Below are positions 31,193 to 50,445 of a stretch of 64,000 nucleotides of DNA, one piece after another. Numbering within the stretch: position 1 is the first letter of the stretch; each line of letters starts with the position of its first letter. This DNA comes from an uncultured Bacteroidota bacterium. Its GTDB lineage: Bacteria; Bacteroidota; Ignavibacteria; UBA10030; UBA8401. The translations under genes and the position numbers were made by a program. The stretch spans positions 247,363 through 311,362 of the forward strand of contig CAVYWA010000014.1 in assembly GCA_963772165.1 (NCBI GenBank). Reading direction: 5' to 3'. The notes beneath the pieces are model-generated. The model was not told where the DNA came from and searched no databases. It saw only the letters and a list, made by a program, of their open reading frames with translations.

Positions 31193-32162
31193 AAAACGAA
31201 GTGATTTTGAATCAATTTCCATTCACTGGATTGGGGTACACCTGGGATTACAATCCTAAAAACACTAGTCATATCGGAGTTACTGAATTCGTGTTAAACG
31301 AGAAAAGGAAAGTCTATGTCAGACAAACATTGAGTACTTAATGACTATTTAAATGCTCTTGCCAAAAGGCTGTCAAGCGATAGAAGATGACGAGAAAAAC
31401 GGTAGGGTATAAGATCGCCGAATGACACAATGTTTCCGTTGCTTACGGATGCAGCCTAACAAGAAGGGAAATCTATTCATATTATCTGTTTTCTTTGTCA
31501 GTCAATACTGCTGCCTTTCTAACGATATTAAAGCCACCGAGCCCCCCATCTTTTCTCTAAATTTTCCCTTGAATGAGTGGTGGATGTCTCCTAATTGGTG
31601 ATTGCAGCAGCCCTATTAAATCAGGACTCGCAGCGGTAAATGCGAATTATTACGCGACTTTGTTACAATTTGGTTACATGAGCGTTCATTTCATGCAAAA
31701 GCCGGTGTAATTACAGGGGCTTTATGTTGATCCGACGGTCTTAGAAGGCGAGTGCTCTATTCTGCTGAGTCAATTAAGCGAAATAGCTCTTCTGGAAATC
31801 TCGTTGGCATTTATGATCGGACCTTATTAGTAAACAGATTTCGTAGCTCAAAATCTAACCAGAATTCCCCCAGTGCAATGCAAAGAAACTTTACCGGCCA
31901 TTCATTCTAAGTTCTATTCCCGACTGAAGGACATTCTAATAACCTCATGCAATGTCTGTTTTCCTTCCAAAAAATACCTGATTTATGCTATTGCATGTTT
32001 CTGGCCAAAAGAATATGATTTGGACATTCAATTAACCTTTTGAATTTGTCGTTGACAGCATTAGGTCGAGAATAAAGTGCATAGGGCCTCAGTTTGTGCG
32101 GTTGCAACCATCCTTCCAATTTCCTACATTTGTGCATTATTTCAGGCGGAAAAAGCGGTCTT

Positions 32163-34953
32163 ATGAACACCCACTCCCCGGGGCAATCCAAAACGAATAA
32201 TTCATATCGAGTTACCGAAGCTCAAACGCGGTTTAGCCTTATTGATCCCGAGCTTCAAAAAGCTGGATGGAATCTCTCTGATCGAACGCAAGTTAAATTC
32301 GAGATTCCGGTTGACGGGTATGACGGCTCGGGCGGTGGCGGATTCACCGATTACACTTTGTATAGAACAAATGGCGAAATCCTCGCGGTGGTAGAAGCAA
32401 AGCGAACAAGCCGTGACCCGCGAGAAGGGGAGAAACAGGTTCTTGAATACGTTACTGCGATAGAGAAGAAGCAGAGCTTCCGTCCATTCGCATTCATGGC
32501 GAATGGTGAGGATGTATTCTTCTGGGAGAGTGATACCACAGCCCAACGCCACGTTGCGGGATTCTTCTCGCGTGAGAATCTTGAGCGCCTTCTTTTCTTA
32601 AAGCAAAATAAAAAGCCGCTCAACTCAGTCCTTCCGAATAAAACGATCATCGACCGGAGCTACCAGGTCGAAGCGATTCGTAGAATCTCCGAAGCAGTTG
32701 AAAAGAAAAAACGAAAAGCTCTCCTCGTGATGGCGACGGGGACCGGCAAGACCCGCACGATCATGGCGTTGATCGATGTCTTCCTGCGGGCTCACGCCGC
32801 GCAGAAGGTTCTCTTTCTTGCCGACAGGGACGCTCTTGTCGACCAGGCGCTCAGCGACGGCATCAAGGCCCATCTCCCTCACGAATCGCGGACGAGGATA
32901 CGAACCTATTCGATCGACACAACCGCACGACTCTACGTCTCCACGCTTCAAACCCTCGAGATGTGTTACGATAAATTCACTCCAGCAGATTTCGATCTCG
33001 TCATAACTGACGAATGCCACCGTTCGATTTACAATAAATTCACCGACGTGCTGGCTTATTTCGATGCTGTGCACATCGGACTGACCGCGACGCCTGCGGA
33101 ATTCATCGACCGAGATACGTTCAAGTTTTTTGATTGCGAGGGGAGAGTGCCGACATTTCTCTATCCGTTTGATAAGGCAGTGGAGGAGAAGTATCTGGTA
33201 GACAAAAATGTTTATGCTGCACAGACAAAGTTTCAAAGGGAAGGAATAAAAGGGGCGAATCTCAGCGAAGTAGATAAAGAGACCCTTCGCAGCCGCGGGA
33301 TCGATCCCGATGATCTCGACTACGAAGGGACCGATCTTGAACGCAAGGTGACAAACAAGGACACATTGCGGAGTCAGTGGGAAGAGTTTATGGATGTCTG
33401 CTACAAAGACTCCACAGGCCAGCTTCCAGGGAAATCGATTATTTTTGCCATCACACACAATCATGCGATGCGTTTGTCTGAAACTTTCGACGAGATGTAT
33501 CCCGAGTATGAAGGGAAGCTCGTTCAGGTAATTGACTCAAAGATGGAACGTGCCAAGACGCTTCTTGACGATTTCAAGAAGCAGAATTTTCCTCGCATTG
33601 CAATTTCTGTAGACATGCTCGATACAGGCGTGGACGTTCCCGAAGTGGTCAACCTTGCCTTCATGAAGCCGGTCAATTCGCAGATCAAATTCTGGCAGAT
33701 GATTGGACGTGGCACGAGGAACCAGGAGGCCTGCAGGCACTATGAGTGGCTGCCGAACAGAAATAAAGAAGAATTCCTAATCGTTGATTATTGGGAGAAC
33801 TTCGAGCACTTCAATATGATGCCGGCTCAGGAGGAGGGAGTTTCGCAAATCCCGGTTCTGGTGACAATTTTCAACACGCGATTAGATAAGCTTCGCATCT
33901 TTCAGGGAAATCAGACATTCCCCGATGCGCTGCGGGTCATTCGCGACCTGAGAAGTGACATCGCGCGGATCCCGCTACAATCCTTTTCGGTGAAGAAAGT
34001 ATTCAACGAAGTGCGTGAAGCGTGGGAAGACGAGTTCTGGAAGTACTCTCACCGAGCAAAAGATAGAATTTCTGCGGATGAAAGTTGGACCGCTTCTGCG
34101 GTATGTTCCCAACGTGCGTCCGGTTGAGGCATCTTTATAAGTAAGATGGAGCGCTGTGGACTTGCACACCTCCAGCACAAAGATCTCGCTTCTTATATAA
34201 CCTCAATTCGCGAAGATGTAGGGTTACTTCCGACGACATTGGGCGAAGTGCAATCGAGGCAGAAATACGTCGATCAGCTTATGTCGAACGATTTCTGGGT
34301 GAACCACACGCTTGCAACAATTGACGAAGCGAAAGAGGCGCTCTCCCCAGTAATGAAGTTCAAACGCGAGCGACCGTCGTTCGTTTTCGAACTGGGGCTT
34401 GACGATGTGATTGCAATGCGCAAGTGGGTCGTGGTAAGAAAAGATTCTCAAAAGATGTATATCGAAGAGTACCGAAAACTAGTAGAAGCGAAGATCGAGA
34501 AGATCGCTGCCGAGCATCCGACAGTAAAGAAGATTAAGAATAAGGTTGAGATTGACAATGAGGATATGATACGATTGGAGGAGACGCTCGAAGCGGAGCT
34601 TGGAACGGACGAGATTAGCCTCGACGATGAGAATATGCTGAAGGCGTTTGGTGTGCGCGTTGGAAGCTTGGTGGACTTCCTTAAACATGTGCTCGGACTT
34701 GAAGCGCTCCCCTCGTACGAAACTGTTGTGAGGAAGGCATTCGATGCCTTCATCCTTGAGCACAACTACAATTCAGATCAGTCAAGGTTCCTGCGTGTAA
34801 TGCAGAGTGTGTTTTTGCAGCGGAGAAAAGCTGCAGCTTGCGGATCTGTATGAAGAGCCGTTTACGAACTTCGGTGCGAATGCGGTAGAGAAACTGTTTG
34901 CGGGAAATGAAATTACTGAACTAATTGAGTTGGCAAAGAGATTGGCGCCGTAA
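32163..34953 (+). pseudogene. hsdR: Type I restriction enzyme R subunit (HsdR), disrupted by an in-frame TGA at 34125-34127 and a frameshift near 34801-34853
   Basis: The N-terminal region has the HsdR_N motif (TEAQTRFSLIDPELQKAGW). The helicase region reads MATGTGKT..VITDECHRS. After the in-frame stop the same frame continues into the EcoEI_R_C-like domain (34146-34853). The final ~30 codons (..EEPFTNFGANAVEKLFAGNEITELIELAKRLAP) lie in a third frame. Confidence 0.7.
34862..34884 (+). repeat. Left copy of the 23-bp imperfect direct repeat (tttacgaacttcggtgcgaatg) at the hsdR 3' end
   Basis: It matches 38082-38104 (tttacgaactttggtgcgaatg) at 22 of 23 positions. Both copies encode ..PFTNFGAN.. 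Confidence 0.7.
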
Positions 34954-34999
34954 AATCCTGCATGACACAATTTGAATTAACATTAAGGAGGAAACTAAT

Positions 35000-35371
35000 A
35001 TGGGAAGTTCTGGAACAGGTAAGCTAAGTGATTATTCGGAAAAGACTGAAAAGAAAGGGGGCGGGAAGGCTTCTGGTGCCAGCGGCAAAGATCCTTGTGA
35101 TAACGCATTTGCAACTACACTGGAAGATGTTGATCGATGTGAGTACTTTAAAAATCACAAGTCGGTTCCGCCTATTGGCACAGAAGTCATCGTCTCTCTT
35201 AAAGGCCGCCTTTTGGTTGATACATTGGCCGGCGAGACTATTGGCTACTTACCCACGGAGTATAACTATTTGGCTGGATGTATGAAGAAAAAACGTTCAT
35301 ATGGAGGTCAGGTCTCTTCAGCTACCACGAAACCTGTAATTAGAGTTAGGGTTGACATCGGACCACAATGA
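35000..35371 (+). CDS. Small hypothetical protein with Gly/Lys-rich N-terminus (first gene of the 4-gene cassette)
   Basis: The 123 aa ORF has a strong AAGGAGG RBS 7 nt upstream. Its N-terminus reads MGSSGTGKLSDYSEKTEKKGGGKASGASGK.., and it has a ~80-aa C-terminal domain. Confidence 0.45.
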   Translation: MGSSGTGKLSDYSEKTEKKGGGKASGASGKDPCDNAFATTLEDVDRCEYFKNHKSVPPIGTEVIVSLKGRLLVDTLAGETIGYLPTEYNYLAGCMKKKRSYGGQVSSATTKPVIRVRVDIGPQ

Positions 35372-35372
35372 C

Positions 35373-36740
35373 ATGACGGAAAAGTCTTCGGCAATCTTGC
35401 TCATCGGAGAGACCTGCCTTGATGTGACCCTTTTTCCTGCAGGCACATTGGAAAGGAAGCTTAGGCTCGGCGGAGTGGTACATGCTGCTCGATGTCTTTG
35501 GGGACTTGGGGCTTCATATCAACTGGCATACTTGGCACCAAGTTACTTGTTTCGCCAAATCGAAGACTACGCCCTAGCCCACGGCTGTTCCAACGTCTCA
35601 CAGATCGCGACAATTGAGGGTGCACCCTGCGTTATGCTTATTGAAGAAGCCACTGAAGCGGGTAGTCAGGGATATGACTATCTACTACGAGACGAATTGA
35701 AGTGTGATATCGATACACCAAGATTGGAAAGCATAGTCACAAAAACGGAAATATCTGACATCTTGGTGTTTCCGGGCAACTATGATCTCGCCAAGGTGCT
35801 CGTTGCATGTTCTAAATCAAAGGCTCGGATACATATTGATATCGCAAACGGTGTCAGTAATCTCAGTGTCCTGAAAAAGTTTGTGAGAAAATTTGACACG
35901 GTCATTACTTCCACATCATCAGAAATCTTCTTGGACAAATTTAAGGGGAGTCCCGAGCGCCTTTGCCAAGAAGTTCTTGATATCTATGGTGAGTCTTTCT
36001 TATTGAAAGAGAATCGTGGAGGCTCAAGATTTTACTCGAGCAGAGCACAGAAGAAGCCCATCGAAATCGGGGCTCAGTTGAGACCCATTGTCCACTCTGT
36101 TGGAGTGGGAGATGCGTTCGACGCAGCATTTGTTAATCTTAGGCAGACGCGCGATGACGAATCTGCCCTTACTTGTGCTTCATGGATTGCTGCAGAATAC
36201 GCGGCAACTACGTTCATGGACGACTTTACAGATGGCTGTAGTCGTGTTTTGGCATTGGAACGAGACGAGATCTTATCTCTTCCAGGTGTTTCTCTTCCAT
36301 GGGAAGTCCGTAGCCAATTCAATATTTATATTGCTGCTCCTGATTTTGACTATCTGGATAGAACACACATCGATCGATTAGTCAGTTGTCTCAAGTATCA
36401 CAATTTCAATCCGAGGCTTCCTGTTCGAGAACATGGACAAAGCAGGCCAAACACAGCGAGTCATGAGAAATACGAAATGTGTGGCGCTGATTTGTCATTG
36501 CTCGATGAATGCGATATGTTAGTTGCGCTAAACTTGGGGAATGATCCAGGTACATTGATTGAAATTGGCTTAGCCAAAGGGGCTGGTAAGCCAGTAGTGG
36601 TTTATGATCCATTTGAGAAAGCTAAGAATCTAATGTTAACTCATCTGCCAGACTTCGTGTCATCGAGTCTTGACGGAATAGTGACTAAAGTGTTTGAGAT
36701 AATATCAACGATCAGGCATGCCGCATCACAGAAAAAATAG
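35373..36740 (+). CDS. PfkB-family kinase fused to a nucleoside 2-deoxyribosyltransferase-like (NDT/Rossmann) C-terminal domain
   Basis: The N-terminal half reads ..LLIGETCLD..GGVVHAARCLWGLG.. and ..VGVGDAFDAAFV.. (the PfkB GAGD-type signature). The C-terminal half reads ..NIYIAAPDF..CDMLVALNLGNDPGTLIEIGLAKGAGKPVVVYDP.., an NDT-like DxGTxxExG..GKP pattern. The ATG at 35373 lies 2 nt after the upstream stop. Confidence 0.55.
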   Translation: MTEKSSAILLIGETCLDVTLFPAGTLERKLRLGGVVHAARCLWGLGASYQLAYLAPSYLFRQIEDYALAHGCSNVSQIATIEGAPCVMLIEEATEAGSQGYDYLLRDELKCDIDTPRLESIVTKTEISDILVFPGNYDLAKVLVACSKSKARIHIDIANGVSNLSVLKKFVRKFDTVITSTSSEIFLDKFKGSPERLCQEVLDIYGESFLLKENRGGSRFYSSRAQKKPIEIGAQLRPIVHSVGVGDAFDAAFVNLRQTRDDESALTCASWIAAEYAATTFMDDFTDGCSRVLALERDEILSLPGVSLPWEVRSQFNIYIAAPDFDYLDRTHIDRLVSCLKYHNFNPRLPVREHGQSRPNTASHEKYEMCGADLSLLDECDMLVALNLGNDPGTLIEIGLAKGAGKPVVVYDPFEKAKNLMLTHLPDFVSSSLDGIVTKVFEIISTIRHAASQKK

Positions 36741-37347
36741 ATCCGTTCTTTTAGCCTCCGGGGGCCTTGACTCGACTACATTGGCATATTGGTTATGTCG
36801 AAAAAAAATTGAATTCCTCCCTGTGTTTGTAAACTATGGACAACATTGTGCAAAGACGGAGTACGAAACACTCAGAGAAGTGCTTCCGAAACATTACTCA
36901 AGACACATCCATGTCGTTGATATCTCTGATGTCTACAAGCGCTCGAAATCGCTTTTGATTCGTGAGCCAAACCTGTGGAAAGATCGAGTGAGCTACCGCG
37001 AATTGTATCTTCCTTATCGCAACTTGCTCATTCTGTCCACGGGCGCGGCATTTGCACAGTCCGTAGGTTGCAAGTGTCTCTATGCGGCATTTATCAACAG
37101 CAACCATGCGATTGAAATTGATTGTTCTGTCGAGTTCTTTGGCAGATTGGATTCCATGCTATCGAGCTATGGGTCTGTCAAACTGTTCATGCCATTTCGC
37201 ACAAAATCGAAATATCAGGTAGCAAAGATGGGTATCTCGCTTCGTGCGCCTATTGGGAAAACGTTCTCATGTCAAGTTTCATCGGTCACTCCGTGCGGCG
37301 CCTGTCCAAATTGTGTTGATCGGTTACAGGCACTTCGTCAACTTTGA
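36718..37347 (+). CDS. QueC-like PP-loop ATPase (7-cyano-7-deazaguanine synthase family)
   Basis: The sequence has VLLASGGLDSTT (the SGGxDS PP-loop). A C-terminal Cys cluster reads C-x8-C-x2-C-x2-C (FSCQVSSVTPCGACPNC), matching the QueC Zn site. It overlaps the upstream gene by 23 nt. Confidence 0.7.
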   Translation: MPHHRKNRSVLLASGGLDSTTLAYWLCRKKIEFLPVFVNYGQHCAKTEYETLREVLPKHYSRHIHVVDISDVYKRSKSLLIREPNLWKDRVSYRELYLPYRNLLILSTGAAFAQSVGCKCLYAAFINSNHAIEIDCSVEFFGRLDSMLSSYGSVKLFMPFRTKSKYQVAKMGISLRAPIGKTFSCQVSSVTPCGACPNCVDRLQALRQL

Positions 37348-37376
37348 TATCATGTAGCATCATTTTGAGAATAGTC

Positions 37377-38069
37377 ATGAACCTAATCGTTTTCGCGCGT
37401 AAACTTGCTGATTACCTTAACAAGCTTCCAGATTTTGTAATTTCTAAGCACAACGGTTACGACAAAGAGAGTATGGGTGCGATAATAGCAGATGCGGTAT
37501 TGCAGGCAGGCCTTAATTACCGGACCGTTGTTGCTCCGAGAGTCAAGAGAATTCTCAACGATTATCCAGATGCTGCGACAACTTCAGGTTTCCTAGTAAC
37601 AATCGACAGGTTCGGATGCGATGTAATCCTTCGATGGAATCACCCGGAAAAGCCGAGAAGAGTTCAATCTCTGGCTTTATTGCTTGAAAACGAACAAGTT
37701 GAGACCAAGGATCAATTGCGCGATTGGCTTAAAAATGACGTTAACAGTGAAAAGTTGAGAGCTATCCCGGGAATTGGACCGAAGACCATCGATTATCTGA
37801 AGAACTTATCCGGACTTTCAGCAATTGCCATAGACCGACACATACGTAGGTTAGCCTTCGAAGCAGGTATAATCATTACTGATTACCGTACGTTGCGAAA
37901 GGTGGTCGAGTTTACTGCGGATCTTCTTGATGTTCCGCAAAATGATCCTGACCATTCAATATGGCTCTACATGTCCAAGCCTTCACGATCATATTGTAAG
38001 AAGACCTCAGAATTTTCAGAGCAACCAGCATTCTCTCGCGAAAGAAATGGCAAAGCTTGTTTAATTTGA
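37377..38069 (+). CDS. HhH-GPD superfamily DNA-glycosylase-like protein (OGG/EndoIII-like); an alternative TTG start at 37344 overlaps the queC-like stop
   Basis: The sequence reads ..LRAIPGIGPKTIDYLKNLSGLSAIAIDRHIRRLAFEAG.., a helix-hairpin-helix followed by a Gly/Pro-rich loop and a conserved Asp. Confidence 0.55.
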   Translation: MNLIVFARKLADYLNKLPDFVISKHNGYDKESMGAIIADAVLQAGLNYRTVVAPRVKRILNDYPDAATTSGFLVTIDRFGCDVILRWNHPEKPRRVQSLALLLENEQVETKDQLRDWLKNDVNSEKLRAIPGIGPKTIDYLKNLSGLSAIAIDRHIRRLAFEAGIIITDYRTLRKVVEFTADLLDVPQNDPDHSIWLYMSKPSRSYCKKTSEFSEQPAFSRERNGKACLI

Positions 38070-38081
38070 AGCGAGGACCAT

Positions 38082-38104
38082 TTACGAACTTTGGTGCGAA
38101 TGTT
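38082..38104 (+). repeat. Right copy of the 23-bp imperfect direct repeat flanking the cassette
   Basis: See 34862-34884. It lies 13 bp after the glycosylase-like stop. Confidence 0.7.
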
Positions 38105-38253
38105 GCCGATGAGCTGTGTGGTGAACATGAGATATAAGATTTTATTGCGTTGGAGAAGTTGTTAACTTTGCCGGCGTTTTTTTGTATATTCAGGATGGAT
38201 TCTATCTAGACAACGTGATGAGTCTTCCCTATTAATAGTTTACGCATTTATCC

Positions 38254-39400
38254 ATGGAACCATTGGTATTCATACATCTGTCAGACATCCACTTTTCCAA
38301 GCCGGGGAAACTGTTTGATTTGGACAGTGAACTCAGAAATCAATTGGAATTGGATGTACAACGGATGACGAAAAACTTTGAGGGAGGAGCCAACGGCATC
38401 TTAGTTTGCGGTGATATCGCTTTCTCTGGAGGTACCGAAAAGTACCAGGAAGCAAGTCGTTGGATTAAGAAGCTACTCGGAATGGCAAAGGTTGAGAACG
38501 GCGGCGTTTGGGTGGTGCCTGGGAATCACGATATAAACTGGACGACTATTCGGAGCAGCAAATCCCTGAGAGAGGCACACACAACACTCCGTGGCACACC
38601 GCTTAGCTCAATCGACCAATGTTTCAAAGAATATCTTGATGACAATATTCTCAGACTCTTTGAACCATTGAAGGAATTCAACTTATTTGCATCTTCTTTT
38701 GATTGCGACTCAACCCCTGATCGCCTATTTTGGCAAGATGATCTTGAACTTAATGATGGCTCAATACTGAAAATAAGAGGGATGAATTCGAGTATAATTT
38801 CGAACGAGTATGATAATGATGAGGGAAAGAGTCTGATACTGACTTCATTTCAGTCAGGCTTTATTGAGGAGCCAAACATTACTTACGTTTCCATGTGTCA
38901 CCACCCACCACAAAGGATTCGTGAAGAAGATGACCTCGAAGATTGCTTGAATTCGAGAGTTGCGATCCAGCTATTTGGACACAAACATCGGCAACGATTG
39001 CGTCGGAACGGTGAAGGTCTCAGAATTTCCGCAGGAGCCAGTACACCCTGCTCGGGATGAGAGTCCATGGGAGCCATGTTATAATTGGATCTCAATTTGT
39101 GTCGATATTACCGAAAGCAATCGGAATCTCGTGGTCGATGTTTGGCCGCGCGTATGGAGACCTGCAAGTAGGACTTTCGAGCCTGAATTTCACGATAGCA
39201 AAGAATTCAGACGATTCACCCTGCCTCTAAAACCGTGGAAAGGCAGTAAGGTAAAGAAAATTCAAGCTCAGGTTGGAGACCAGACCAAAGGCCCCCTGGC
39301 TGTTATTAAGGCGAAGTACCATGGATCCCAAAAGACAATTGGTTTATCGCTTTTTAAGTCTCCCATATACCCAGATTATAGAAATCGCAGTGGGCCTTAG
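38254..39400 (+). pseudogene. Calcineurin-like metallophosphoesterase gene with a probable frameshift near 38990-39060
   Basis: The N-terminal part reads IHLSDIHF..GDIAFSG..GNHD..GHKH in frame 1 (38254-39060). Coding-like sequence continues in frame 2 (38960-39400). Confidence 0.45.
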
Positions 39401-39498
39401 GTTGCTAACGGACCAAGACAAAGGTGTCGAGGATTTGGAACTTTTCAAGCGATTCATTGCGAGAGTGAAAAGAGAGGAAGAGAAACGATGGCTCAGCT

Positions 39499-40215
39499 TT
39501 GGGATTGGGTGGAGGACAAGTACGGGAGCGAAAGAAGCACCACAAACCCCTTCAAGACAAACTGATCGGAGAAAAAACAAATGGAAATGAACCCTCTTTT
39601 TTGGAAGGGTACGGAATGGTTTACCCCAACCCATCAGTTGAGATTCTCCAAAGGCGATGGGTCATCGTGGAATCGATTGCTGATGCCCTAAGTACTCCAC
39701 ACACAGCGAGCCTCGTGGCCCTCTGCGTATGCGGCCTGAAGGAAGATTCCATAATCAACCTATTGAACGAGAAGTTCAAGGCTGAAGACGATTCATTCAA
39801 CATCCGATCTAACATAGAAGGGTTGAGATCCCTCGGAACCGCGATCTTGGCTAGGATCATAGAATATGAGAAATCACAAAACTGCACATTCACCGCTCTT
39901 GCTGTCCATTGTGCTAGTTTTGGGAAATCGAAAGGGGACGCATTCACCGCAGATATCATTGAAATTGCTGGAAAATTTCTTGCAAAAAAAACGCTGCAGA
40001 TTCGATCGCGCACTTCAACCGAATCAAGCTTGATGAAAAACAAAGACCTTGAAGGGAACGATGTAGGGACACAAGCGCTCAATCTCGCCAAAGGGCTGCA
40101 AAAGAGCACTATGGAACTTGTGAAGAAATTGAGCACTAATTTTGAATTGCTAGCTGAAGAAAGCAATATGTTCTGGTGGTTAGTCGGGGAATCAGAACAT
40201 TGGGCGAGTCTCTAA
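39499..40215 (+). CDS. Hypothetical protein, probably a fragment of a larger frameshifted gene
   Basis: This 238 aa ORF is too long to arise by chance at this GC content. It overlaps neighbouring ORFs in other frames (39273-39590 and 40176-40601). Confidence 0.35.
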   Translation: MGLGGGQVRERKKHHKPLQDKLIGEKTNGNEPSFLEGYGMVYPNPSVEILQRRWVIVESIADALSTPHTASLVALCVCGLKEDSIINLLNEKFKAEDDSFNIRSNIEGLRSLGTAILARIIEYEKSQNCTFTALAVHCASFGKSKGDAFTADIIEIAGKFLAKKTLQIRSRTSTESSLMKNKDLEGNDVGTQALNLAKGLQKSTMELVKKLSTNFELLAEESNMFWWLVGESEHWASL

Positions 40216-40601
40216 TCGACCTTCCTCATCCTGCCCGTTTGCTATTAGCGGCCAAAGAGTTGGCTGCCCTGACCACTCTTAGACCAGGACCACCATCAGC
40301 CAAGGCGATTCTTTTAAAATGTGCGAAACTGACTAAGGATAAGTCAAGCGGATCATCTTCGCTGAAGCATGCCATAAATTCGATTCCGCAGGAATGGCTT
40401 TCTGCGACTCTCAATCCGAATAGCCAAGTTCTAGAACTTGCTAACACCTCTGATGTTTGCAGGACACAGACGAATGGAAAGCGGAAGCAAAACGGCATGG
40501 TCGAGCAGCTTTTGAAAAAGAATAGGGATACCTACAGACAAGCAGATATCAGATGCAGATCTGGCATTCCAGTATTATCAAGAATGTCTGCTCGAAGCTG
40601 A
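40176..40601 (+). CDS. Hypothetical protein fragment (continuation of the preceding reading frame chain)
   Basis: The 141 aa ORF has a GTG start and overlaps the end of 39499-40215 by 40 nt in a different frame. Confidence 0.3.
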   Translation: MVSRGIRTLGESLIDLPHPARLLLAAKELAALTTLRPGPPSAKAILLKCAKLTKDKSSGSSSLKHAINSIPQEWLSATLNPNSQVLELANTSDVCRTQTNGKRKQNGMVEQLLKKNRDTYRQADIRCRSGIPVLSRMSARS

Positions 40602-40692
40602 ATTCAAAACATTGACAGAGGAGTAAAATTGGGAGACGAAGAAATCGTGAATAAAGATCAACCAACAGGTACTTGGAGAAATTAGAGAATCG

Positions 40693-42333
40693 ATGTCGGT
40701 CGCTTCAAAGGGAAAGGGAGAGGCAGATCAGGGAGAAATGCGAGAGCTGTTTTCAGGTGAAGACTTGAAGGCTGCAGACGTTGAGCGGATAATGGATTCA
40801 TCAGGAACCAGGTTGATCGTTCTTGCTGGCGCTGTGGATGCTGGCAAAACAACATTATTGCTGACGATAGTTCATCAATTCTACAAGGGCGGATTTGGGG
40901 ACTTCAACTTTGCGGGGTCAAGAACACTACTTGCGTTTGATAGAAGAGCTTTTGATTCAAATATTATATCAGGAAGAACTGTACCGACCACTCAACATAC
41001 AATTTCGAGTCTTGATAACATCAAGTTTCTGCATCTGGCAGTTAGAAATAAAGATATGAGTGGGCCAATAACCAACTTGCTATTTACAGATATCTCTGGG
41101 GAGAATTTTCGGGATGCGAGCGACTCTGTTGAGGAATGCCGCAAACTTTGGGTTCTCCGTCGAGCCGACAGATTGGTTCTTTTATTCGACGGGAACAAGA
41201 TAGCCGATCCGGCTAACGCCAGAAAGCGAAAGTAGAGGGAATGATGTTGCTGAGAAGATGCGTCGAAGCGGAAATGATTGGCGGACAATCCAAAATCGAT
41301 ATCATCTTCACAAAAAAGGATATCTTAGAAACCTCTCCAGATAAAGGAAGAGCACTTCCGTTTGTGGATGAGATAAAGGCCGAAATTCTGAGTAAGTTCA
41401 TGGGCTCTTTGGGAACTATTAGTTTCTTCTCTGTCGCGGCTCGTCCAACGATGAAGCCAATACTTGGCGAGACTTATGGCTTCAAGGAATTCCTACCAGC
41501 TTGGATTGATGAGAGTCCATTTATTCGGACGATAAAAAGAGACGTTCCGAACACGTTATCCGAAAATTCCCGAATGTTTTTATCTTCGAAGCTTGAGGAG
41601 GAATATGTGATAACTGATGTAGCAATTCATCGGTGCAGTCAACTTCTGGTCGGATTACCAGACACAGGGAAGTCGACCTTCCTTGCTGCTTTGTATCACC
41701 AGGTTGAAGGCGGTGACATCAAAGGTTCTTTGGTATTGGAGAGGTTAGGGTCTGATATCGAGTATCTAAACAGAATCAGGGAAGATTGGTTGAAATGCGA
41801 AAAGATTAGTAGAGCTACTGGTGTCAAAAGCAAAAAAGTACAATGCTTCTACGGGATCCCAACACATCATTACTTTCAGGGTCACGATTCCTGATTTACT
41901 TGGTGAGATTTTTGACCATCAATTCGAGGAGAGAAGATGGACTGATGAATTCGAAGAAATGGTTATTTATGTAATGGTCTCGTGGTTTTTATTCATCCCG
42001 ATAAAGTCACTCCGGTGAGATCTATTATGGAGGCAAACGTTGTAGTGGAAATGGTTGAAGAAAAGGACTCTCTAATGCCCCCCTTGTAACATGGACGGCA
42101 AAGGGTCCGCGACTCAGATAAAGTTGGTAGATATTCTCCAATGCATACTCGATGGTACGGCTGAGGATAAAGTTACTCCCGTTGCGATTGTAATATCGGC
42201 GTGGGATCGGGTGCTTTCATTACCTAAAGAGTGCGGCGGAAATCCCAAAAGATTCGGTCAAAAAGAGACTGCCTTTGTTGAACCAGTTCTTGGATTGAAT
42301 TACGAGAGGTTATTACAAGATATTCGGAATTAG
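40693..42333 (+). pseudogene. Double-GTPase-like (two tandem P-loop GTPase domains) gene with three or more frameshifts
   Basis: Domain 1 reads GAVDAGKTT (G1), DISGE (G3) and, after the first frame break, ..KIDIIFTKKDIL (G4). Domain 2 reads GLPDTGKST (G1), ..PDLLGE.. (G3) and ..VAIVISAWD... Frame changes occur at ~41217-41235, ~41821-41894 and 42018-42091. Confidence 0.5.
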
Positions 42334-42497
42334 TGTCAAGGAGGCGATTATACAAAGGACAAAGCAAATATTGGGTGAGGCATCGAAAAGGGTTCTTGTT
42401 TATTCAGATACCGGAGCATATGACAAGGATATTTCCGCTCCTATAATAAACAATGGGCAATGTCACTTGTTCCTTTAGAAGAACGTGGTAAATATTA

Positions 42498-43095
42498 TTG
42501 ATGGTACTACATCAAACATTACACGGTTATTGGGACTGTCATAGATTGCTTCAGTCATCATTGGATCTGGACTCTTCAGAAAAAAGAACTTTGTTGTCGA
42601 TGTCAGACATGTCAGGTCCTAGAATGGTCAATGGCTTCGAGGAAGATCTCCTCAGGGTACCCGATTCCTTAATTGAGAGTACTTTGCATTTGCCAAACCA
42701 TGGTACGCTAACGAAATGCCTCGTCCAGGTTGTGTTTGGACTCACTGGGTTATCGACCGAGAAGACGAATCTTGCCATACTTGTTAGAAATACTATTATC
42801 GCTTTTCACTCGTCCGGGTGCCGTTTCTTCCATATTATCGTATGGTCGAGATGTTGTTATTGATGAAAGCCTGACAGTAAATAGAAATGTCAAACTCGTA
42901 AGACTTGACCTTGGAAGGATCAGTCTGAATGCGAGGAACAAAACAGCCTTGTTTGCCTTACCCTACAAGCCTATATTTTTGATTTCTTCTAATGCAAGAG
43001 ATTTCGAATATGTTCCGCTAGGGATCTGGAAAGGAATCTGGCCAGGATTAAGAGTCTGTATATGTGTTTTTTGCAGTTGCTTTTTACATTCTTAA
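42498..43095 (+). pseudogene. Hypothetical gene split across two frames near 42820
   Basis: The ORFs 42498-42863 and 42730-43095 overlap, and a +/-1 shift would join them. Confidence 0.3.
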
Positions 43096-43391
43096 ACAGA
43101 GTCATTGACAATACACCTTTGGATCTTCAGATAATTCCTCGCTCAAGCCTATCTACAATAAGACGAAGCCAATAATGCTCTGTTCCTCGACGAGGAATCA
43201 AAAGGTATCGACGAACTAGGCGATGTGCGTGAAATGGCGGAACTTCAGAAATGATTACAAAAACCTAAGTTTTTCAATTTCGCCACTCAATATACCTCAG
43301 ATATGTCAGGCGGAAGAGAATTAATGATGCTCTAAGCTCGATCTTTAAACTCATAGAAGACACCAAAAATGACACTAAATCAATAAGTGAG

Positions 43392-44600
43392 TTGACCCGA
43401 GGTATAGCACTTGCGTTTCCAAGTCCAACTGAGGCAGCGAGATTGAAGAAATCCCTATATACACCATTCTCGGACACTTTATTGGATCCTATGTTGATAG
43501 ACAAGAAAGAAGCCGAATTGCTATTGGAACTGATCACAACGCCATTTATCGGTTGTATGAACACACAAGAGTTATCTATTACATATAGGACCAGGTCCTT
43601 TTGGTTGCAATCAAGGCCTGAAGCAAAGAGACTTCTTCTGGATACTCTGGAGCTTGACCACAATTCGCTGTTTGATGAGTTTCTTTCAGCTACAGCGTCA
43701 GTTCTATCACCTGAAGATATTTTAGAAATAAGTCATTCGAAACCCAAACTCTTACCTTTCTTTATTCTCAGCAATCCCAAGTTGGCAACCTCGCCTCAGT
43801 TATGGAAAACTTCAGTAGATGTGCAACGTGAGATTTTTGATGTCCTAAAAGAGTCCAAGGACAGCAGTTCTATTGATTGGAATGCAGTGGTGACAGCTAT
43901 TTTTGCTGCAGGTGCGGAACATCTGAGTGTGGTCATTGTAGAGAGAATTGGTTTGCTTCCATTTCTAGGTATTCTCGACAAAATTAAATTTTCTCCAGCG
44001 GATTTTTCACAACAATGGAAGAGGGCCACTGCTTCGAAAGATTCTCTTGTATGTAAATGGCTTGAGATCAGCAATTCTCCTTCTCAGAATATCCTTACTC
44101 TGTTTGCTCTGTCAAGTGAGCCACGTTCATGTATTTTTGACGCGTCAAACCTCGCTCCTTGGGTACGTTTAGCAGATTCCTTGGAATCCTTCAATTCAAG
44201 CATCAGAATCAGAATAGCGGCATTCTTGTTGGCATTGGGCCTCTACAATCAGGATCAAGAAACATATAAACTCGTAACACGCAGCTTCCAAATTGTCCAT
44301 GATGCAGCTGAGAAGGATAACCTCCCTTACGACTCATGGCGCCTTTTGGAAGGGTTGGTTCCTGAGTTGTCTTGGACAAAGAACTGGGACAAGTGCGAAC
44401 GCCTTATACGCGGGGTGGTGGAACGTTACTCGAACTGGAAGTGGCCCATATCTTCGTTTGTTCAAGTTACAAATCGAGAGGATACTCTTAAACGAATTCT
44501 CAAACGGTGTATGAAGAACCCCGATGGAGTCCAATTTGTGCAGCTACTCAAAAAAGAACAGTCCGGTGGACTTAAGCGAGTTATCAAAGAGGTAGAATAA
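43392..44600 (+). CDS. Hypothetical alpha-helical protein
   Basis: The 402 aa ORF has no recognisable motif. It lies between the decayed GTPase region and hsdM. Confidence 0.4.
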   Translation: MTRGIALAFPSPTEAARLKKSLYTPFSDTLLDPMLIDKKEAELLLELITTPFIGCMNTQELSITYRTRSFWLQSRPEAKRLLLDTLELDHNSLFDEFLSATASVLSPEDILEISHSKPKLLPFFILSNPKLATSPQLWKTSVDVQREIFDVLKESKDSSSIDWNAVVTAIFAAGAEHLSVVIVERIGLLPFLGILDKIKFSPADFSQQWKRATASKDSLVCKWLEISNSPSQNILTLFALSSEPRSCIFDASNLAPWVRLADSLESFNSSIRIRIAAFLLALGLYNQDQETYKLVTRSFQIVHDAAEKDNLPYDSWRLLEGLVPELSWTKNWDKCERLIRGVVERYSNWKWPISSFVQVTNREDTLKRILKRCMKNPDGVQFVQLLKKEQSGGLKRVIKEVE

Positions 44601-44785
44601 GCATCAGTCGGTTCATCACTTTCCACATTTTTTCCTCCGCAGCACTCTACTAGAAATCCAATTTTGAGAGAGTAATCTGCTTTCGCGTTAGGTAGGTGGA
44701 AGGTGGCGAACATAGTTTAACATGTAGCATCCCGACCCGAAGGTTCCTCAGTGGGGGAACGTTACTCATAACATCGTCAATACGA

Positions 44786-46286
44786 ATGCTCACCGACCCA
44801 CAACTTAAATCTAAAGTCGACGCTCTCTGGGACCGCTTCTGGTCCGGCGGCATCGCCAATCCTATTACTGCCATCGAGCAGATGTCCTATCTCATATTTC
44901 TCAAGCGGCTGGAGGATATGGACAATGCCCGTGCTGCGGGCGCGAAGAGAAAGAACGAATTATATCGTTCTATTTTCCACGGGAGCAAAGACTGTCGGTG
45001 GTCTGTACTGGAGTCAATTGCCTGGCGATCAGATGCTAAAGCATGTACGTGACAAGGTCTTCGACTTCCTGCGCGAACTTGGGAGCAACACAAGCTCGTT
45101 TACCCAGCACATGCAGGATGCCGTCTTCATCATCCCGAAGGCATCGCTGCTGCAGGAGGGGGTGAAGATCATCGACGATATGCACATTGCCGAGCAAAAC
45201 ATCGATGTGCAGGGAGATCTCTACGAATATCTGCTAATGCAGCTCACCACTGCGGGGAAGAACGGACAGTTCCGGACGCCAAGGCACATCATCCGGATGA
45301 TGGTGAAGCTGGTAAACCCGAAAGTGGGCGACCGTATCTGCGACCCGGCTGCGGGCACGGGCGGGTTTCTAGTGAACGCGTACGAGCACATACTCGAATC
45401 GAACACATCCCCCGACGTTCTTGAATACGACGACGAAGGGAAACCGCATCACTTAATCGGCGACAAGATCGCGGATAAGAAGCTGCTGAAGTTTCTGAAG
45501 AGCCAGGCGTTGACAGGTTACGACTTCGACGCGACGATGACGCGCATCGGCGCAATGAATCTGATGCTGCACGGGATCGACAATCCGAATTTTCGGTATA
45601 CAGATACACTCTCAAAGTCGTTTACCGAGAAGGGACAATACGACGTAATCCTCGCCAACCCGCCATTCAAGGGATCGATCGACAAGAGCGACATCAACGA
45701 ACGCTTCTCAACGAAGACGACGAAAACGGAATTGCTTTTTATTGAATTGATGTACGACCTCTTGGTGACCGGCGGACGTTGCGGCGTGATCGTGCCCGAC
45801 GGTGTATTGTTCGGGACGAGCAACGCACACATTGCAACGCGGCGGATTCTTGCTGACAAGTGCAAGCTCGAAGGCGTTGTCTCGATGCCATCTGGAGTAT
45901 TCAAGCCCTACGCCGGAGTCTCGACTGCGGTGCTCGTGTTCCAGAAAGGCGGCACCACGGACAATGTCTGGTTTTATGACATGAAGGCGGATGGTTTCTC
46001 GCTGGATGATAGGCGACAGAAGATAGCCGAGAACGATATTCCCGACATCGTTAAGCATTGGGGAGATCGAGGCAAATCGAAAATCGGCAATCGTAAATCG
46101 AAAATGTTTGCCGTTCCCGCCGACGAAATCCGTTCCAACAAATACGACCTATCCATTTCACGATACAAGCTAATCGAGCACAAGAAAATTGAATACGAGA
46201 AGCCGGAGGCGACGATGAAGAAGTTACTGGAGTTGGAGAGAAAAATCGGAAACGATATTGAATCAATTCAAAGAATGCTTAAATGA
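44786..46286 (+). pseudogene. hsdM: Type I R-M methyltransferase subunit HsdM, frameshifted near 44990-45020
   Basis: The HsdM_N segment (MLTDPQLKSKVDALWDRFWSGGIANPITAIEQMSYLIFLKRLED..RWS) is in one frame. The methylase core (..DPAAGTGGFL..ANPPFKG..) is in another frame (44925-46286). Confidence 0.7.
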
Positions 46287-47413
46287 CCCAGCGCAAGTTG
46301 CAACTTGGGAGCCTTGTATCAATCGTAAAAGGTAAAAAACACGATGAGGTTTCTAACATTCCGTCGCTTGGGTCCAAGAGGTATATTCAAATCGATGATC
46401 TCAGGAACAATTCCAATTTGAAGTATACGACCAATTCTGGAGTGGAAGTCGGCATTGACGACGTGATTATTGCCTGGGATGGTGCAAATGCTGGTACAAT
46501 CGGATTTGGATTGAATGGATATATTGGAAGTACTCTTGCTCGACTAAGGATTATTGATGCTCAAGTTTATTCAAAATTCTTGGGATGGTGCCTGCGCGGT
46601 CAATCAGTTTCAATAAGGGAGAAATGTACCGGCGCAACAATTCCTCATGTCAACAAGTCTTTTCTCCAATCTATCGATGTACGCCTTCCCCCTCTTCCCA
46701 TCCAAAAACAAATCGCCGAAATATTAGAGAAAGCCGATACAACTCGTGAGATGCGTCTGGAGGCTAATGAACTCACCCAACAGTTTTTACATTCGGCCTT
46801 TTTGGAGATGTTCGGCGATGGGACGCACAAGCGTGTAAAGTTGAGAGATGTTTGTCGAATCATTACGGATGGCACGCACATCACTCCAAAGTATCTAAAT
46901 CAGGGAGTACCTTTTGTCTCGGTGAAGGATGTAAGGAGTAAGAAAATTGATTTCAATAATGTAAAGTATATCTCTCGTGATGAGCATCTTTTCATTACAA
47001 AAAGGTGTAGACCAGAAAAGGGGGATATCCTTTATACAAAAGTTGGTGCGACATTTGGTAACGCTGTACTGGTTGATCTAGATACTGAATTTAGTATCTT
47101 CGTGAGTCTTGCATTACTGAAACCTAAGTTTGATATAATTGAGCCACACTTTTTGCATTACATGATGAACACTGATTTTGTGAAGAGCCAGGCACGGCAA
47201 CGGATAAAAGGAATTGCTGTTCCTGACTTACATTTGATCGAGATCAAAGACTTTGATATCTACCTGCCTGAGATGGCTGAACAGCGAAAATTTCTCGGCT
47301 TAGTCGAGAAGGTTGAATTGCTCCGTGTTAAACAGCGAGAATCGGAGAAAGAGCTAAACAATCTCTTCAACAGCCTTATGCAGAGAGCGTTTCGAGGGGA
47401 GTTGGTGGAGTGA
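46283..47413 (+). CDS. hsdS: Type I R-M specificity subunit HsdS
   Basis: The 376 aa ORF has a start overlapping the hsdM stop (ATGA). It has two TRD-like halves and the conserved central and C-terminal coiled regions. Confidence 0.7.
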   Translation: MTQRKLQLGSLVSIVKGKKHDEVSNIPSLGSKRYIQIDDLRNNSNLKYTTNSGVEVGIDDVIIAWDGANAGTIGFGLNGYIGSTLARLRIIDAQVYSKFLGWCLRGQSVSIREKCTGATIPHVNKSFLQSIDVRLPPLPIQKQIAEILEKADTTREMRLEANELTQQFLHSAFLEMFGDGTHKRVKLRDVCRIITDGTHITPKYLNQGVPFVSVKDVRSKKIDFNNVKYISRDEHLFITKRCRPEKGDILYTKVGATFGNAVLVDLDTEFSIFVSLALLKPKFDIIEPHFLHYMMNTDFVKSQARQRIKGIAVPDLHLIEIKDFDIYLPEMAEQRKFLGLVEKVELLRVKQRESEKELNNLFNSLMQRAFRGELVE

Positions 47414-47420
47414 ACCAACG

Positions 47421-48777
47421 ATGTCAACTGCAATGAACAAGCTTCTCATTCTTCTTATGTTGCTCACTTCAAACCTATACGGGCAAGTGAACGTGAGCGA
47501 GGCATTTCAGAACACACTTAAAAAAGTCGCCAAGGAACGTGTGAAGGAGGACGTTATCTCATGGATAACTGAGCAGGACGTTATCGGCGGCATTGTGGGT
47601 CGCGACCTTATCGCGCAACTGCTTGACGGAAAAGACGAAGCAACTCTCCTGCGGAGCACCACCAACGTTGTCTCCACAATGCTATTTCTAGGGGGTATCA
47701 AAGTGTACGTACAAAAAATTGGTCCAAGAAAACCCTGATGTCATTGAACAGGCAAGATCTGCTGGTTGGACGAAAGAACAACTCATCGGTTATTCATGCT
47801 TGTATTATTACTTTTCCGAAAGAATAAAGTACAAGCTTTATGTTTCTCCGGAAATACTGAAAATGTCCCAAGAAAAGTCTCGGATAGAGTCATTCAAAAC
47901 CTCAAGTGGTCGAAAATGGACGGTTGTGGTATCAGGACGATTAATTAGGGCGAGACGCGAGGACAAGAACCTTTCTGTGGATGTCAGAATTTTGGAATAT
48001 GTTGATGCGAGTCTATGGTCCCTTATTTCCGACAGGGAGAAATATTTCTCAAATTTTGAAAAAAATTTCAATTCTTTACTGCAGATGTTTGAGACCGACC
48101 AGAGGTCCCGGCAACTCATACTTGATTTGGTAGACACTTCGTCGGGTCACAGGAGCATCGAAAAACTTTTTAAACTCTACCAACAATACTTCGATTCGTC
48201 TTACACAATGGACAAGGTCTTCGTGACAACAAGCAACGAATCACGGACAGATAAAGATGTCGGTCAAAATACTGATTCCACCGACCAGGGCAGCACGACA
48301 AACCTTCTCATAGAAGCTTACTCGGGGATGGTCTCAACAGCTCAGTATGCCTTTGTCAATCAAGAACAGTATAAGACAGTCATTTTAGGGACGATCAGAG
48401 ACATTCTCGAAACCTGGATTCATCAGGCTAGGCAAAATGGCTGGAGATTTGATTATGCCGTATCTCTTTCGGCGACAGCGATTGAGCGGAACCAGAATGC
48501 TAACCTGGACTTCACTGTTCTGGATCAAATCCGATTTGTCAACTACTACGAATCCACGCGGATATTTGTGTATCTGGGAGGTTTCCTCGATCCACTTTTG
48601 AAGAGCACGGTCAATAAGGGAGGCGATAAGGTCTACTTGGGCGGAATTGGAGTTGGGTGGAATGCAGTCTTTCTTGCCGTTTCGGCTGGTGTAGAGTATC
48701 CTAATGTCGTTTTGAAAAATACACGGCTTGCGCTTTCTTTTGGTTACGAGATTCCGGTTACCGAAATATGGGAGTGA
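47421..48777 (+). pseudogene. Secreted hypothetical protein split by a frameshift at an A6 run (~47713-47718)
   Basis: ORF 47421-47738 carries the signal peptide. ORF 47719-48777 has only a TTG start. Deleting one A joins them into a ~451 aa protein. Confidence 0.4.
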
Positions 48778-49040: not shown

Positions 49041-50234
49041 ATGTATCCTTCAGAAATGCTTCCGGAAATGATCTTTGATGATCCCAGCCTCGCGCTTATC
49101 TATACTTTTTGTCTTAGTCGGATAGGAAAACCATTCGAAAGAACTCGCATCGACGGGCATATAGTCTCATTGCGGACTAATGAAACCGCTATCCGCAAAA
49201 GTGACTTCCATAGACTTCCTATAGAGGAGGACAGAATCAATGAAATTCTGTCAGAGTTACAGAATCTTCGGCTTATGGAAGTTTCACACCGTGAATCATT
49301 TGTTCTCACCTACTTTCCTAACCTTTCGCTCCCACCAGAACCAAGGAGTTCACTGTCCGAGAACGGCCCGGGTCAACTTCCCCTAATTTCATTTAACGAC
49401 TTTTCACAGCGATACCTAGCTCATTTAGATAGCAATAACTATGCTCCGAAGACAATAGAAAACGCAGAAAGAGTATGTAAGATGTTTGGCAAATGGAAGG
49501 GGACATCTATGTTGAGCCAGTTGCATTCCTCTGATCTGGAGAATTATAAGGAAGAAAGAGGATCGGTCGTGAAACCTGTGACGGTCAATATTGATTGTCG
49601 AACGCTCAAAGCTATGTTGGAACAGGCGATCCGCTGGGGCTATCTCAAAGAGAATCCCTTTAGAATAGTTCTTGAGATCCGGATTGACAGTAAATTGCCA
49701 CGGTTTCTTACAAGAGACGAATTCAAAGCAATAATTTCTCTTATTGATGATGATATGCTAATAAATGTTTGTAAATTTGGCGTCCTGACTGGTGCCCGAA
49801 GAGGAGAAATTTTGAATTTGCAGTTGAAAGACATCGACTTTGAGAATCACTTGATAACAATACAATCATCAGAAAACTATCGAGTGAAACATGGAAAAAG
49901 TAGAATCATACCATTGCCGAAAGCTGTTATGCCAATTTTGAAATCAATAGAACCTTCCGATATATTTGTTTTTGACATCGAGGGCAATTGGAAGGCCAAA
50001 GAAGAGTTTGTCACGAAAGGATTCAAGAAATTCTCGAGGGCTGCCGGGCTCGACGAGGAAGTTAAGTTTCACACGCTTCGAGCTACCGCTGCCTCATGGT
50101 GGGCACAAGCGGGGGCAACCGCTCTTCAGATCAAAGAACTACTAGGTCATAAGTACGTAAAAACAACTGAGCATTATACTCGAATTCCACCGACCGAGTT
50201 GCGCAATGTTGTGGACTCTCTTGCACCATTCTGA
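49041..50234 (+). CDS. Tyrosine-type site-specific integrase (second copy, attR-proximal)
   Basis: The 397 aa ORF reads ..TGARRGEIL..HTLRATAASWWAQAG..LLGHKYVKTTEHYTRI. It ends 120 bp before the right direct repeat. Confidence 0.85.
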   Translation: MYPSEMLPEMIFDDPSLALIYTFCLSRIGKPFERTRIDGHIVSLRTNETAIRKSDFHRLPIEEDRINEILSELQNLRLMEVSHRESFVLTYFPNLSLPPEPRSSLSENGPGQLPLISFNDFSQRYLAHLDSNNYAPKTIENAERVCKMFGKWKGTSMLSQLHSSDLENYKEERGSVVKPVTVNIDCRTLKAMLEQAIRWGYLKENPFRIVLEIRIDSKLPRFLTRDEFKAIISLIDDDMLINVCKFGVLTGARRGEILNLQLKDIDFENHLITIQSSENYRVKHGKSRIIPLPKAVMPILKSIEPSDIFVFDIEGNWKAKEEFVTKGFKKFSRAAGLDEEVKFHTLRATAASWWAQAGATALQIKELLGHKYVKTTEHYTRIPPTELRNVVDSLAPF

Positions 50235-50355: not shown

Positions 50356-50410
50356 AGAGAGATTTCACACGGGGTCGTAGCTCAGTTTGGTTAGAGCGCC
50401 TGCCTGTCAC
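50356..50410 (+). repeat. attR-like 55-bp direct repeat
   Basis: Identical to 19188-19242. Confidence 0.85.
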
Positions 50411-50445
50411 GCAGGAAGTCGAGGGTTCGAGTCCCTTCGGCCCCG
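50371..50445 (+). tRNA. tRNA-Asp (anticodon GTC)
   Basis: A cloverleaf can be drawn with acceptor GGGGTCG/CGGCCCC, D-arm GCTC..GAGC, anticodon stem CCTGC/GCAGG with loop CTGTCAC, and T-arm GAGGG-TTCGAGT-CCCTT. CCA is not encoded. Confidence 0.85.

Follow-up and report, generated by a model that had tools for sequence, protein, structure and literature searches.

Contact-dependent growth inhibition (CDI) and Rhs loci carry orphan, displaced C-terminal modules downstream of their cdiA and rhs genes, and in naturally transformable bacteria homology-facilitated illegitimate recombination combines a homologous anchor with a nearby illegitimate or microhomology junction. Defence genes embedded in Type I restriction-modification (R-M) operons have been described for TgvAB of Vibrio cholerae VPI-2 and for RloF and GmrSD homologues (PMC11411939), and in the 'R-MS' gene arrangement the inserts have been interpreted as ancestral genes that are progressively lost (PMC12255300). 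Here we analyse a stretch of 64,000 nucleotides (the window) from an uncultured Bacteroidota bacterium of the Ignavibacteria (GenBank assembly GCA_963772165.1, contig CAVYWA010000014.1, positions 247,363 to 311,362 of the forward strand), in which a four-gene QueC-family cassette lies between the hsdR and hsdM genes of a Type I R-M locus and is flanked by two copies of a 22-nt direct repeat. The right copy belongs to an orphan hsdR tail, and orphan gene ends of this kind recur at the hsdR-hsdM junction of related loci; we lean towards reading the repeat as the scar of a homology-anchored recombination that imported an hsdR end together with new cargo.

The orphan resembles those of CDI and Rhs loci in being a 5'-truncated 3' part of the main gene that lies downstream in the same orientation with its own downstream genes. 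Several such orphans can be stacked in both settings (locus L027 here; related loci are designated by L numbers), with new modules seeming to enter beside the main gene and older ones pushed outward. Unlike the CDI/Rhs case, the duplicated piece is a non-variable enzyme tail and not a toxin domain, so that no functional tail swapping is implied; the cargo consists of separate defence operons and not of parts of the same polypeptide, and mirror-image orphans of the hsdM head occur as well. As in the loci of the two R-M reports, hsdR and hsdMS share one orientation and have unrelated defence genes between them, the window being an extreme instance with ~10 kb of cargo. Both reports describe the embedding and present no orphan tails or heads as evidence of serial acquisition (PMC11411939, PMC12255300), and no account of orphaned hsdR tails or hsdM heads came to light in the literature searched, which was short on papers from subscription journals. 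Taken singly the feature is ordinary; only modest novelty attaches to the family-wide occurrence of orphans at the two borders, a variation on known phenomena.

The right repeat copy opens an orphan hsdR tail

The repeat unit, TTTACGAACTTYGGTGCGAATG, is 22 nt long and occurs exactly twice in the window, in copies that agree at 21 of 22 positions and differ where the left copy has C and the right copy T. No third match at three or fewer mismatches was present in the window, and none appeared in 100 dinucleotide shuffles (0/100). The two copies flank four plus-strand open reading frames (ORFs) spanning 35000-38069, which bears out the first-pass annotation of this DNA in its description of a four-gene unit bracketed by an imperfect direct repeat. 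The repeat that it reported is real, although it had been given as 23 nt with coordinates 1-2 nt off, and the right copy, which had been placed 13 bp past the last cassette gene, begins 11 nt past that gene's stop codon. L001 and L077, two other assemblies of the same organism, carry both copies including the same C/T difference, and the repeat is thus not an assembly artefact. Both copies encode PFTNFGAN, as had been noted for an unspecified frame; the frame is the same in the two copies, and the proline codon lies just outside the 22-mer.

PFTNFGAN is the most conserved motif of the tail in EcoEI-type hsdR homologues. Among 56 homologues of the hsdR C-terminal region a conserved end, DLYEEPFTNFGxNAVEKLF...L.A, is shared and the tails stop 31 residues after the proline; the left copy in the window is exactly this end. 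The closest allele, L005 (81% amino-acid identity), follows the native tail (tail A, Table 1) to the stop codon, where similarity ends, and we therefore regard the left tail as native to this hsdR lineage. Homology between the two repeat sites extends 3' of the 22-mer through the rest of the hsdR tail, as evidenced by 37 of 68 nt matching in register (null 17.4 +/- 3.7, p ~5e-5), so that the proposed derivation of the right copy from the hsdR 3' terminus holds. On the 5' side, 10 of 24 nt match (p = 0.05), a similarity that is not significant. A tblastn comparison identified the sequence as an hsdR tail (tail B; E = 6e-5): positions 38078-38170 align in register with native positions 34858-34950, and the alignment runs on past a premature TAA (I-stop-DFIALEKLL against ITELIELAKRL). 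The 22-mer owes its conspicuousness mainly to the motif that it encodes, the best conserved of the EcoEI_R_C tail. Judged on its sequence, the right copy is where a complete but decaying orphan hsdR 3' end starts; this orphan has the make-up of a displaced gene end, namely a 5'-truncated hsdR copy situated downstream of the intact gene, with its orientation unchanged and its end where the stop codon naturally falls.

The right copy had also been taken for a duplicated remnant of the insertion target, and this does not fit what follows the repeat. Outside the 22-mer the orphan is only 51-55% identical to the resident tail, it carries substitutions at family-invariant positions (A246V, V247A, F251C), and its frame is closed by the premature stop; on these grounds the orphan is a tail that has diverged or decayed, with another allele as its most likely source, and was not generated by duplication at insertion. 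A target-site duplication, or an in-situ tandem duplication caused by insertion of a transposable element, would readily place direct repeats around a discrete gene block. The repeat sits, however, within ~90 nt of diverged homology instead of forming a short exact duplication, the cassette ends lack terminal inverted repeats, none of the four genes encodes a transposase domain, and at a second orphan-bearing locus, L041 (see below), in-situ duplication is excluded by synonymous-biased divergence. We give this explanation next to no credence. The premature TAA and the substitutions at invariant positions, together with the constant nature of the tail, likewise speak against the orphan as an alternative functional module that could be reactivated.

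The final codons of the orphan and the sequence downstream of them make up a stem-loop that is followed by T7 and resembles an intrinsic terminator (Table 1). It is probably the old hsdR terminator, which now stands behind the cassette. A simple terminator scan missed this hairpin owing to its G-T pairs and folding recovered it; the same simple scan returned no site of this kind in the stretch from the live hsdR stop codon to cassette gene 1. At the right-copy 22-mer itself folding gave no stable hairpin (z = -0.97), the terminator-like stem being the sole stable one there, and an attC-like structure at the 22-mer was accordingly rejected.

This bears on whether the 22-mers could be attL/attR cores recognised in trans by a site-specific recombinase, such as the tyrosine integrase encoded 11 kb downstream, with the cassette being integron- or island-like. 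Such an origin would account for an insertion that keeps the hsdR 3' end complete, as integrative islands do for their target genes, and the pairing of an intact gene end with a displaced partial copy is like attL/attR of tRNA-targeting islands, a true example of which lies in the window at tRNA-Asp. Yet that integrase adjoins tRNA-Asp and has perfect 55-nt direct repeats of its own (19188-19242 and 50356-50410), and no homologue of it was found near any other orphan-bearing locus. Unlike the att sites of tRNA islands, the repeat is imperfect and lies within diverged homology, and the junctions are not fixed between loci, orphan starts being variable. The 3.2-kb unit holds no recombinase gene detectable by Pfam or PADLOC and in particular no integrase, and no IntI-type gene was found to go with an attC site, for which the 22-mer offers no stable hairpin. 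We therefore consider a recombinase-served att site very improbable. A search for the repeat elsewhere, which the first-pass annotation had recommended in the expectation of different cargo, returned 0 matches to the exact 22-mer in the metagenome collection, and the 22-mer is thus not a widespread DNA site.

The near-identity of the core deserves separate consideration. Where alleles differ outside the core as much as the orphan does (~51% identical), they usually agree at 12-17 of the 22 repeat positions, and even the closest allele, L005, agrees at only 19. Conserved amino acids leave only seven synonymous sites open to change, and one difference is observed where three would be typical (P ~0.1). 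The 21/22 identity is suggestive of a crossover or a conversion at this place and is no proof of either.

Orphan tails and heads recur at a cargo bay

An alignment of the hsdR C-terminus was used to scan species-representative genomes, which yielded 62 loci, mostly from Bacteroidota and Ignavibacteriota metagenome-assembled genomes (MAGs); three further loci were added through protein look-ups. The order hsdR, hsdM, hsdS is conserved in 55 loci. Empty sites, for which the first-pass annotation had advised looking, do exist: 14 of the 55 loci with hsdM in range have it directly after the hsdR stop, with 3 nt (L052), 6 nt (L055) or 303 nt (L012) between the stop codon and the hsdM ATG. The remaining 41 are filled with 0.75-9.7 kb of cargo, the largest being that of the window. 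This cargo is largely defence-related and comprises Bro-N, RhuM/Fic, TIR-APAZ, class II prokaryotic Argonaute (pAgo), a PD-T4-5-like gene, PDC-M70A and a protease; the cargo adjacent to scars is of the same character (pAgo, TIR-APAZ, the PD-T4-5-like gene and PDC-M70A). As a separate observation, the cargo-free 303-nt spacer of L012 (positions 2526-2828) contains four GTCCC(N4-5)GGGAC palindromes with the look of repetitive extragenic palindromic (REP) elements.

When each of 64 loci was probed with its own hsdR end, orphan hsdR tails were present in five: the window, L007, L027 (which has two), L041 and L054. Every one of them ends at the natural hsdR stop codon, and their 5' starts lie at differing positions from 65 to ~250 nt upstream of it, at AVEKLF in L027, VNDLYEPP in L041, FILEHNY in L054, SDQSRFL in L007 and PFTNFG in the window. 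Weaker matches in L015, L023, L046 and L033 were judged spurious. The orphan of L041 differs from its live tail by 17 synonymous and 2 non-synonymous codons, and this synonymous-biased divergence shows the orphan to be of foreign-allele origin, once part of a functional gene in another lineage and not an in-situ duplicate. In L027 two orphan tails are stacked (11365-11434 and 12461-12532), each after one cargo gene (Bro-N, then RhuM/Fic). In L054 the orphan and the live tail are 86% identical upstream and 59% identical over the last 21 codons, an instance of the naturally fast evolution of the extreme hsdR tail between alleles.

The hsdM side shows the counterpart. Orphan hsdM heads (MLT..LKSKVDSLWDKFWSGG) were found in 11 of 42 filled loci (L008, L011, L014, L015, L016, L023, L025, L027, L029, L030 and L038); they start at Met1, are 16-42 codons long, and lie either 44-80 nt or 0.6-3.1 kb upstream of the live start. 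What remains as orphans is confined to bay-facing ends, 3' for hsdR and 5' for hsdM, and their orientation is constant. In some loci the scars are near-tandem, with no cargo between the copies (tails in L007; hsdM heads in L014, L015 and L027). We note that in five loci the orphan hsdM head is only the 44-80 nt from the real start, where such heads could act as short upstream ORFs rather than being pure scars.

This polarity must be weighed against the proposal that a second hsdR, belonging to another Type I system, once stood in tandem and was mostly deleted, with the orphan as all that is left of it and the identity of the 22-mers reflecting only conservation at the protein level. The proposal accommodates an orphan as diverged as a distant allele (51% outside the core), the variable orphan lengths and, given conserved amino acids, a 21/22 match that is only mildly unusual at the P of ~0.1 given above. 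However, none of the 64 loci (0/64) has two full hsdR genes around cargo, L027 would need three, and random deletions would not leave only bay-facing ends in one orientation with such recurrence. We regard a tandem remnant as unlikely.

A further tail was seen outside any hsd locus. At 9995-10099 of L065 an intact-looking hsdR tail (YEPPFTNFGVNAVEKLFSEEEVNDLVELTKKLVA, then stop) stands alone, neither an hsdR body nor hsdM or hsdS occurring within 10 kb of it. A gene for a 421-aa protein that matches no family in Pfam or PADLOC follows 27 nt on. The arrangement reflects either deletion of the hsd genes or relocation of a tail-plus-cargo block to a new context. A degenerate scan of viral contigs for PFTNFG.NAVEK codons gave 0 matches and hence no evidence for phage-borne tail-plus-cargo modules.

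Proposed origin of the scar

What follows on the sequence of events and on the precise recombination route is inferred. In the ancestral arrangement of this EcoEI-type family hsdM would begin a few bases past the hsdR stop, and in Bacteroidota and Ignavibacteriota this junction has been turned into a bay filled with defence genes. Incoming DNA would carry the conserved 3' part of hsdR plus new cargo, the hsdR part acting as a homologous anchor, and the joining of its far end, through short homology or by illegitimate recombination, would take place within the resident hsdR 3' end and so displace the resident tail downstream. The expected product is an intact hsdR with a complete tail and then the new cargo, behind which the old tail, truncated at its 5' end, would follow together with its terminator, and lastly the older cargo; a circularised fragment integrating by a single crossover would be expected to give the same product. 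The window's junction would fall at the PFTNFGAN codons, and it is because this is the most conserved block of the tail that only a near-perfect 22-mer catches the eye. We consider such a scar the probable origin of the repeat, though by no great distance from even. The structure of the product is compatible with homology-facilitated illegitimate recombination, a likeness that would account for the variable junctions and for scars with little or no cargo; unlike in typical cases of that process, the window junction coincides with a 22-nt near-identity, longer than the usual microhomologies.

The first-pass annotation regarded the cassette as a mobile, self-contained unit. The identical four-gene order recurs in five sampled contexts elsewhere, with housekeeping genes on either side in L067 and L072/73, next to a Qat-like system in L068 and within an island of Pontibacter in L069-71, and no hsdR, hsdM or hsdR tail was found near the operon in any of the five. 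The operon is thus discrete, self-contained and portable, as had been supposed, and since its copies elsewhere come without hsdR sequence the repeat is not part of it. Nor is the 22-mer its mobility site, because other cassette copies lack an hsdR tail, the 22-mer is absent from the metagenomes, and orphan starts vary.

These observations weigh on a recombinase-free mobile circle consisting of one 22-mer, tail A and the four genes, which would have entered by a single crossover within the 22 bp of identity and might be excised again. Its topology fits the window exactly: near-perfect identity is confined to the 22-mer, and homology at the right copy begins approximately there and continues into a different tail. 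Against a circle, tail A is congruent with the hsdR body and the closest allele, L005, has the same tail. The resident tail B should resemble tail A unless it has decayed, in which case the intact core goes unexplained, and excision now would give hsdR a truncated, mutated tail. Together with the missing hsdR fragments and the missing exact 22-mer elsewhere, the near-tandem scars at other loci, which cannot arise from circles, leave this explanation with a small share of probability. For the scar reading it follows from the cargo-free near-tandem copies (L007, L014/L015/L027) that linear one-sided events fit better than circular cassettes.

A bolder extension, which we hold to be improbable though worth stating, is that the gene-end fragments are portable homology arms and that the junction is a recombinase-free, integron-like capture platform. 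If so, double homologous recombination would allow cargo between a tail and an orphan tail or hsdM head to enter any of the family's hsd loci, arrays would build up with the newest cargo beside hsdR, and the 22-mer would be maintained as a crossover site. The three tails of L027, with two orphans that start at the same codon, may be cited for such arrays.

Several observations weigh against the homology-anchored scar. The exact pre-insertion locus, in which a tail-B-like hsdR end would directly precede the metallophosphatase/GTPase system that now lies beyond the orphan, was not found among the related loci, most of which are single MAG contigs. A degenerate metagenome scan for functional alleles with the orphan-like tail FTNFGANV[AV]DEL gave 0 matches and hence no evidence of a distinct allele class to which the orphan would belong. 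The two L027 orphans start within 2-3 nt of the same codon (AVEKLF), which is unexpected for independent illegitimate junctions. Finally, if the flank divergence (~45%) were pure decay, one mismatch or none in 22 positions would have a probability of ~4e-5; the objection is softened if the divergence is mostly allelic, because the tail of the L054 pair is also only 59% identical over its last 21 codons.

The QueC-family cassette

The cassette itself corresponds to 'Cluster 4' of the QueC-family, in that a PF06508 QueC-like protein (gene 3) and an adjacent PfkB-PF05014 fusion (gene 2) are encoded in one operon. The PfkB-nucleoside 2-deoxyribosyltransferase neighbour of the 'Cluster 4' gene has been described, with its function left open (PMC13329287). 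The gene 2 fusion protein has 920 homologues, and the gene 3 protein is identical in L001-L004. For gene 1 no Pfam or PADLOC family was matched; the gene keeps the same operon position in L067, L068, L070 and L072. The probable true start of gene 4 is 37377. An alignment with four homologues shows that the C-terminal extension of gene 4, ~25 residues (37990-38069), is non-conserved, which puts the right-hand limit of the imported DNA at ~37990-38080; in blastn searches of this extension and of the post-stop spacers against all loci only chance matches were returned.

The operon is found across many phyla, and PADLOC v2 covers only its QueC match and a weak OGG match. It occupies a Type I cargo bay here, neighbours a Qat-like system in L068 and lies within a defence island of Pontibacter in L069, settings that suggest a defence system not yet characterised. 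Attachment of deazaguanine to a protein N-terminus is reported for the QueC-family enzymes of type IV cyclic-oligonucleotide-based antiphage signalling systems (CBASS) in a recent preprint (bioRxiv 10.1101/2025.04.06.647259), and the abbreviations of the QueC-family survey name the QatB N-terminus as a substrate (PMC13329287). By analogy, the QueC-like gene 3 product may modify the gene 1 product in the same way.

Assembly quality and neighbouring features

The domain order HSDR_N, ResIII/DEAD helicase, Helicase_C, EcoEI_R_C, with hsdM and hsdS downstream, identifies the live gene as an EcoEI-type hsdR. In the window it is split over three frames by indels, which vary among the three assemblies (window, L001 and L077). 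One frameshift, at 34826 and thus 35 nt upstream of the left copy, lies in a run of A that is four long in the window (AAAA) and three long in L077 (AAA); the shorter version restores the hsdR frame, reading ...QRRKLQLADLYEEPFTNFGAN... Because the indels differ between assemblies and L077 restores the frame, the hsdR frameshifts were treated as long-read sequencing or homopolymer noise. L001 and L077 are 98-99% identical with many indels, and differences between them and window positions 32000-47500 concentrate at homopolymers and in GATC/AGCT contexts, a pattern that fits systematic nanopore errors at methylated motifs. Many of the apparent pseudogenes in the window (hsdR, hsdM and the GTPase genes) are probably artefacts.

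GC content across the locus is mosaic, at 0.49 for hsdR, 0.475 for hsdMS and 0.435-0.448 for the cargo. The older cargo beyond the orphan is a GTPase conflict system that comprises DO-GTPase1/2 and GAP1-N1, together with a metallophosphatase (Table 1); it is broken by indels in all three assemblies, and no counterpart was found in the 62 related hsd loci. The 55-nt repeats mentioned above consist of the 15 nt upstream and the first 40 nt of tRNA-Asp, and they bound a region of ~31 kb that holds the whole hsdR-cargo-hsdMS locus with an integrase at each end. This region probably represents one or two integrative islands at tRNA-Asp.

Table 1. Positions of the features discussed, in window coordinates, with the matches or sequence marks that define them.
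Feature	Position	Strand	Matches and remarks
Integrase	~19512-20363		
hsdR, EcoEI-type	32094-34953	+	Pfam HSDR_N, ResIII, Helicase_C, EcoEI_R_C
Native hsdR tail (tail A)	34837-34953	+	LADLYEEPFTNFGANAVEKLFAGNEITELIELAKRLAP, then stop; canonical 31 residues from Pro
Left 22-mer copy	34861-34882	+	Codons FTNFGAN plus G
Cassette gene 1, 123-aa protein	35000-35371	+	N-terminus MGS[ST]G[ST]G..[ST]DYS invariant
Cassette gene 2, PfkB-like kinase/nucleoside 2-deoxyribosyltransferase fusion	35352-36740	+	Pfam PF05014
Cassette gene 3, QueC-family protein	36718-37347	+	Pfam PF06508 8.6e-31; PADLOC QueC
Cassette gene 4, HhH/OGG-like protein	37344-38069	+	PADLOC OGG, weak match, 2e-4
Orphan hsdR tail (tail B)	38078-38170	+	PFTNFGANVADELCGEHEI, then stop, then DFIALEKLL..; premature TAA 38135-38137
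Right 22-mer copy	38081-38102	+	
Stem-loop then T7, intrinsic-terminator-like	38148-38183 (stem-loop 38148-38176)	+	DNA fold centroid
Older cargo: metallophosphatase and GAAD/GASH/double-GTPase (GAP1-type) system	38254-44600	+	Pfam, PADLOC; L001 gene-call Pfam tags
hsdM and hsdS	44786-47413	+	hsdM head MLTDPQLKSKVD.. at 44786, one frameshift; right border of cargo bay
Integrase	49041-50234		
tRNA-Asp	50371-50446		

Significance

Read as scars, the orphan tails and heads would be physical footprints of repeated cargo import at the hsdR-hsdM junction, in which the conserved gene ends would serve as recombination anchors and a dedicated recombinase would not be needed. A rule for finding recently acquired defence cargo would then be to search the interval that separates a live gene end from the orphan copy of that end, and the orphan copies may be usable to order acquisitions in time. 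The window also puts a QueC-family operon of four genes, so far uncharacterised, into a defence setting.

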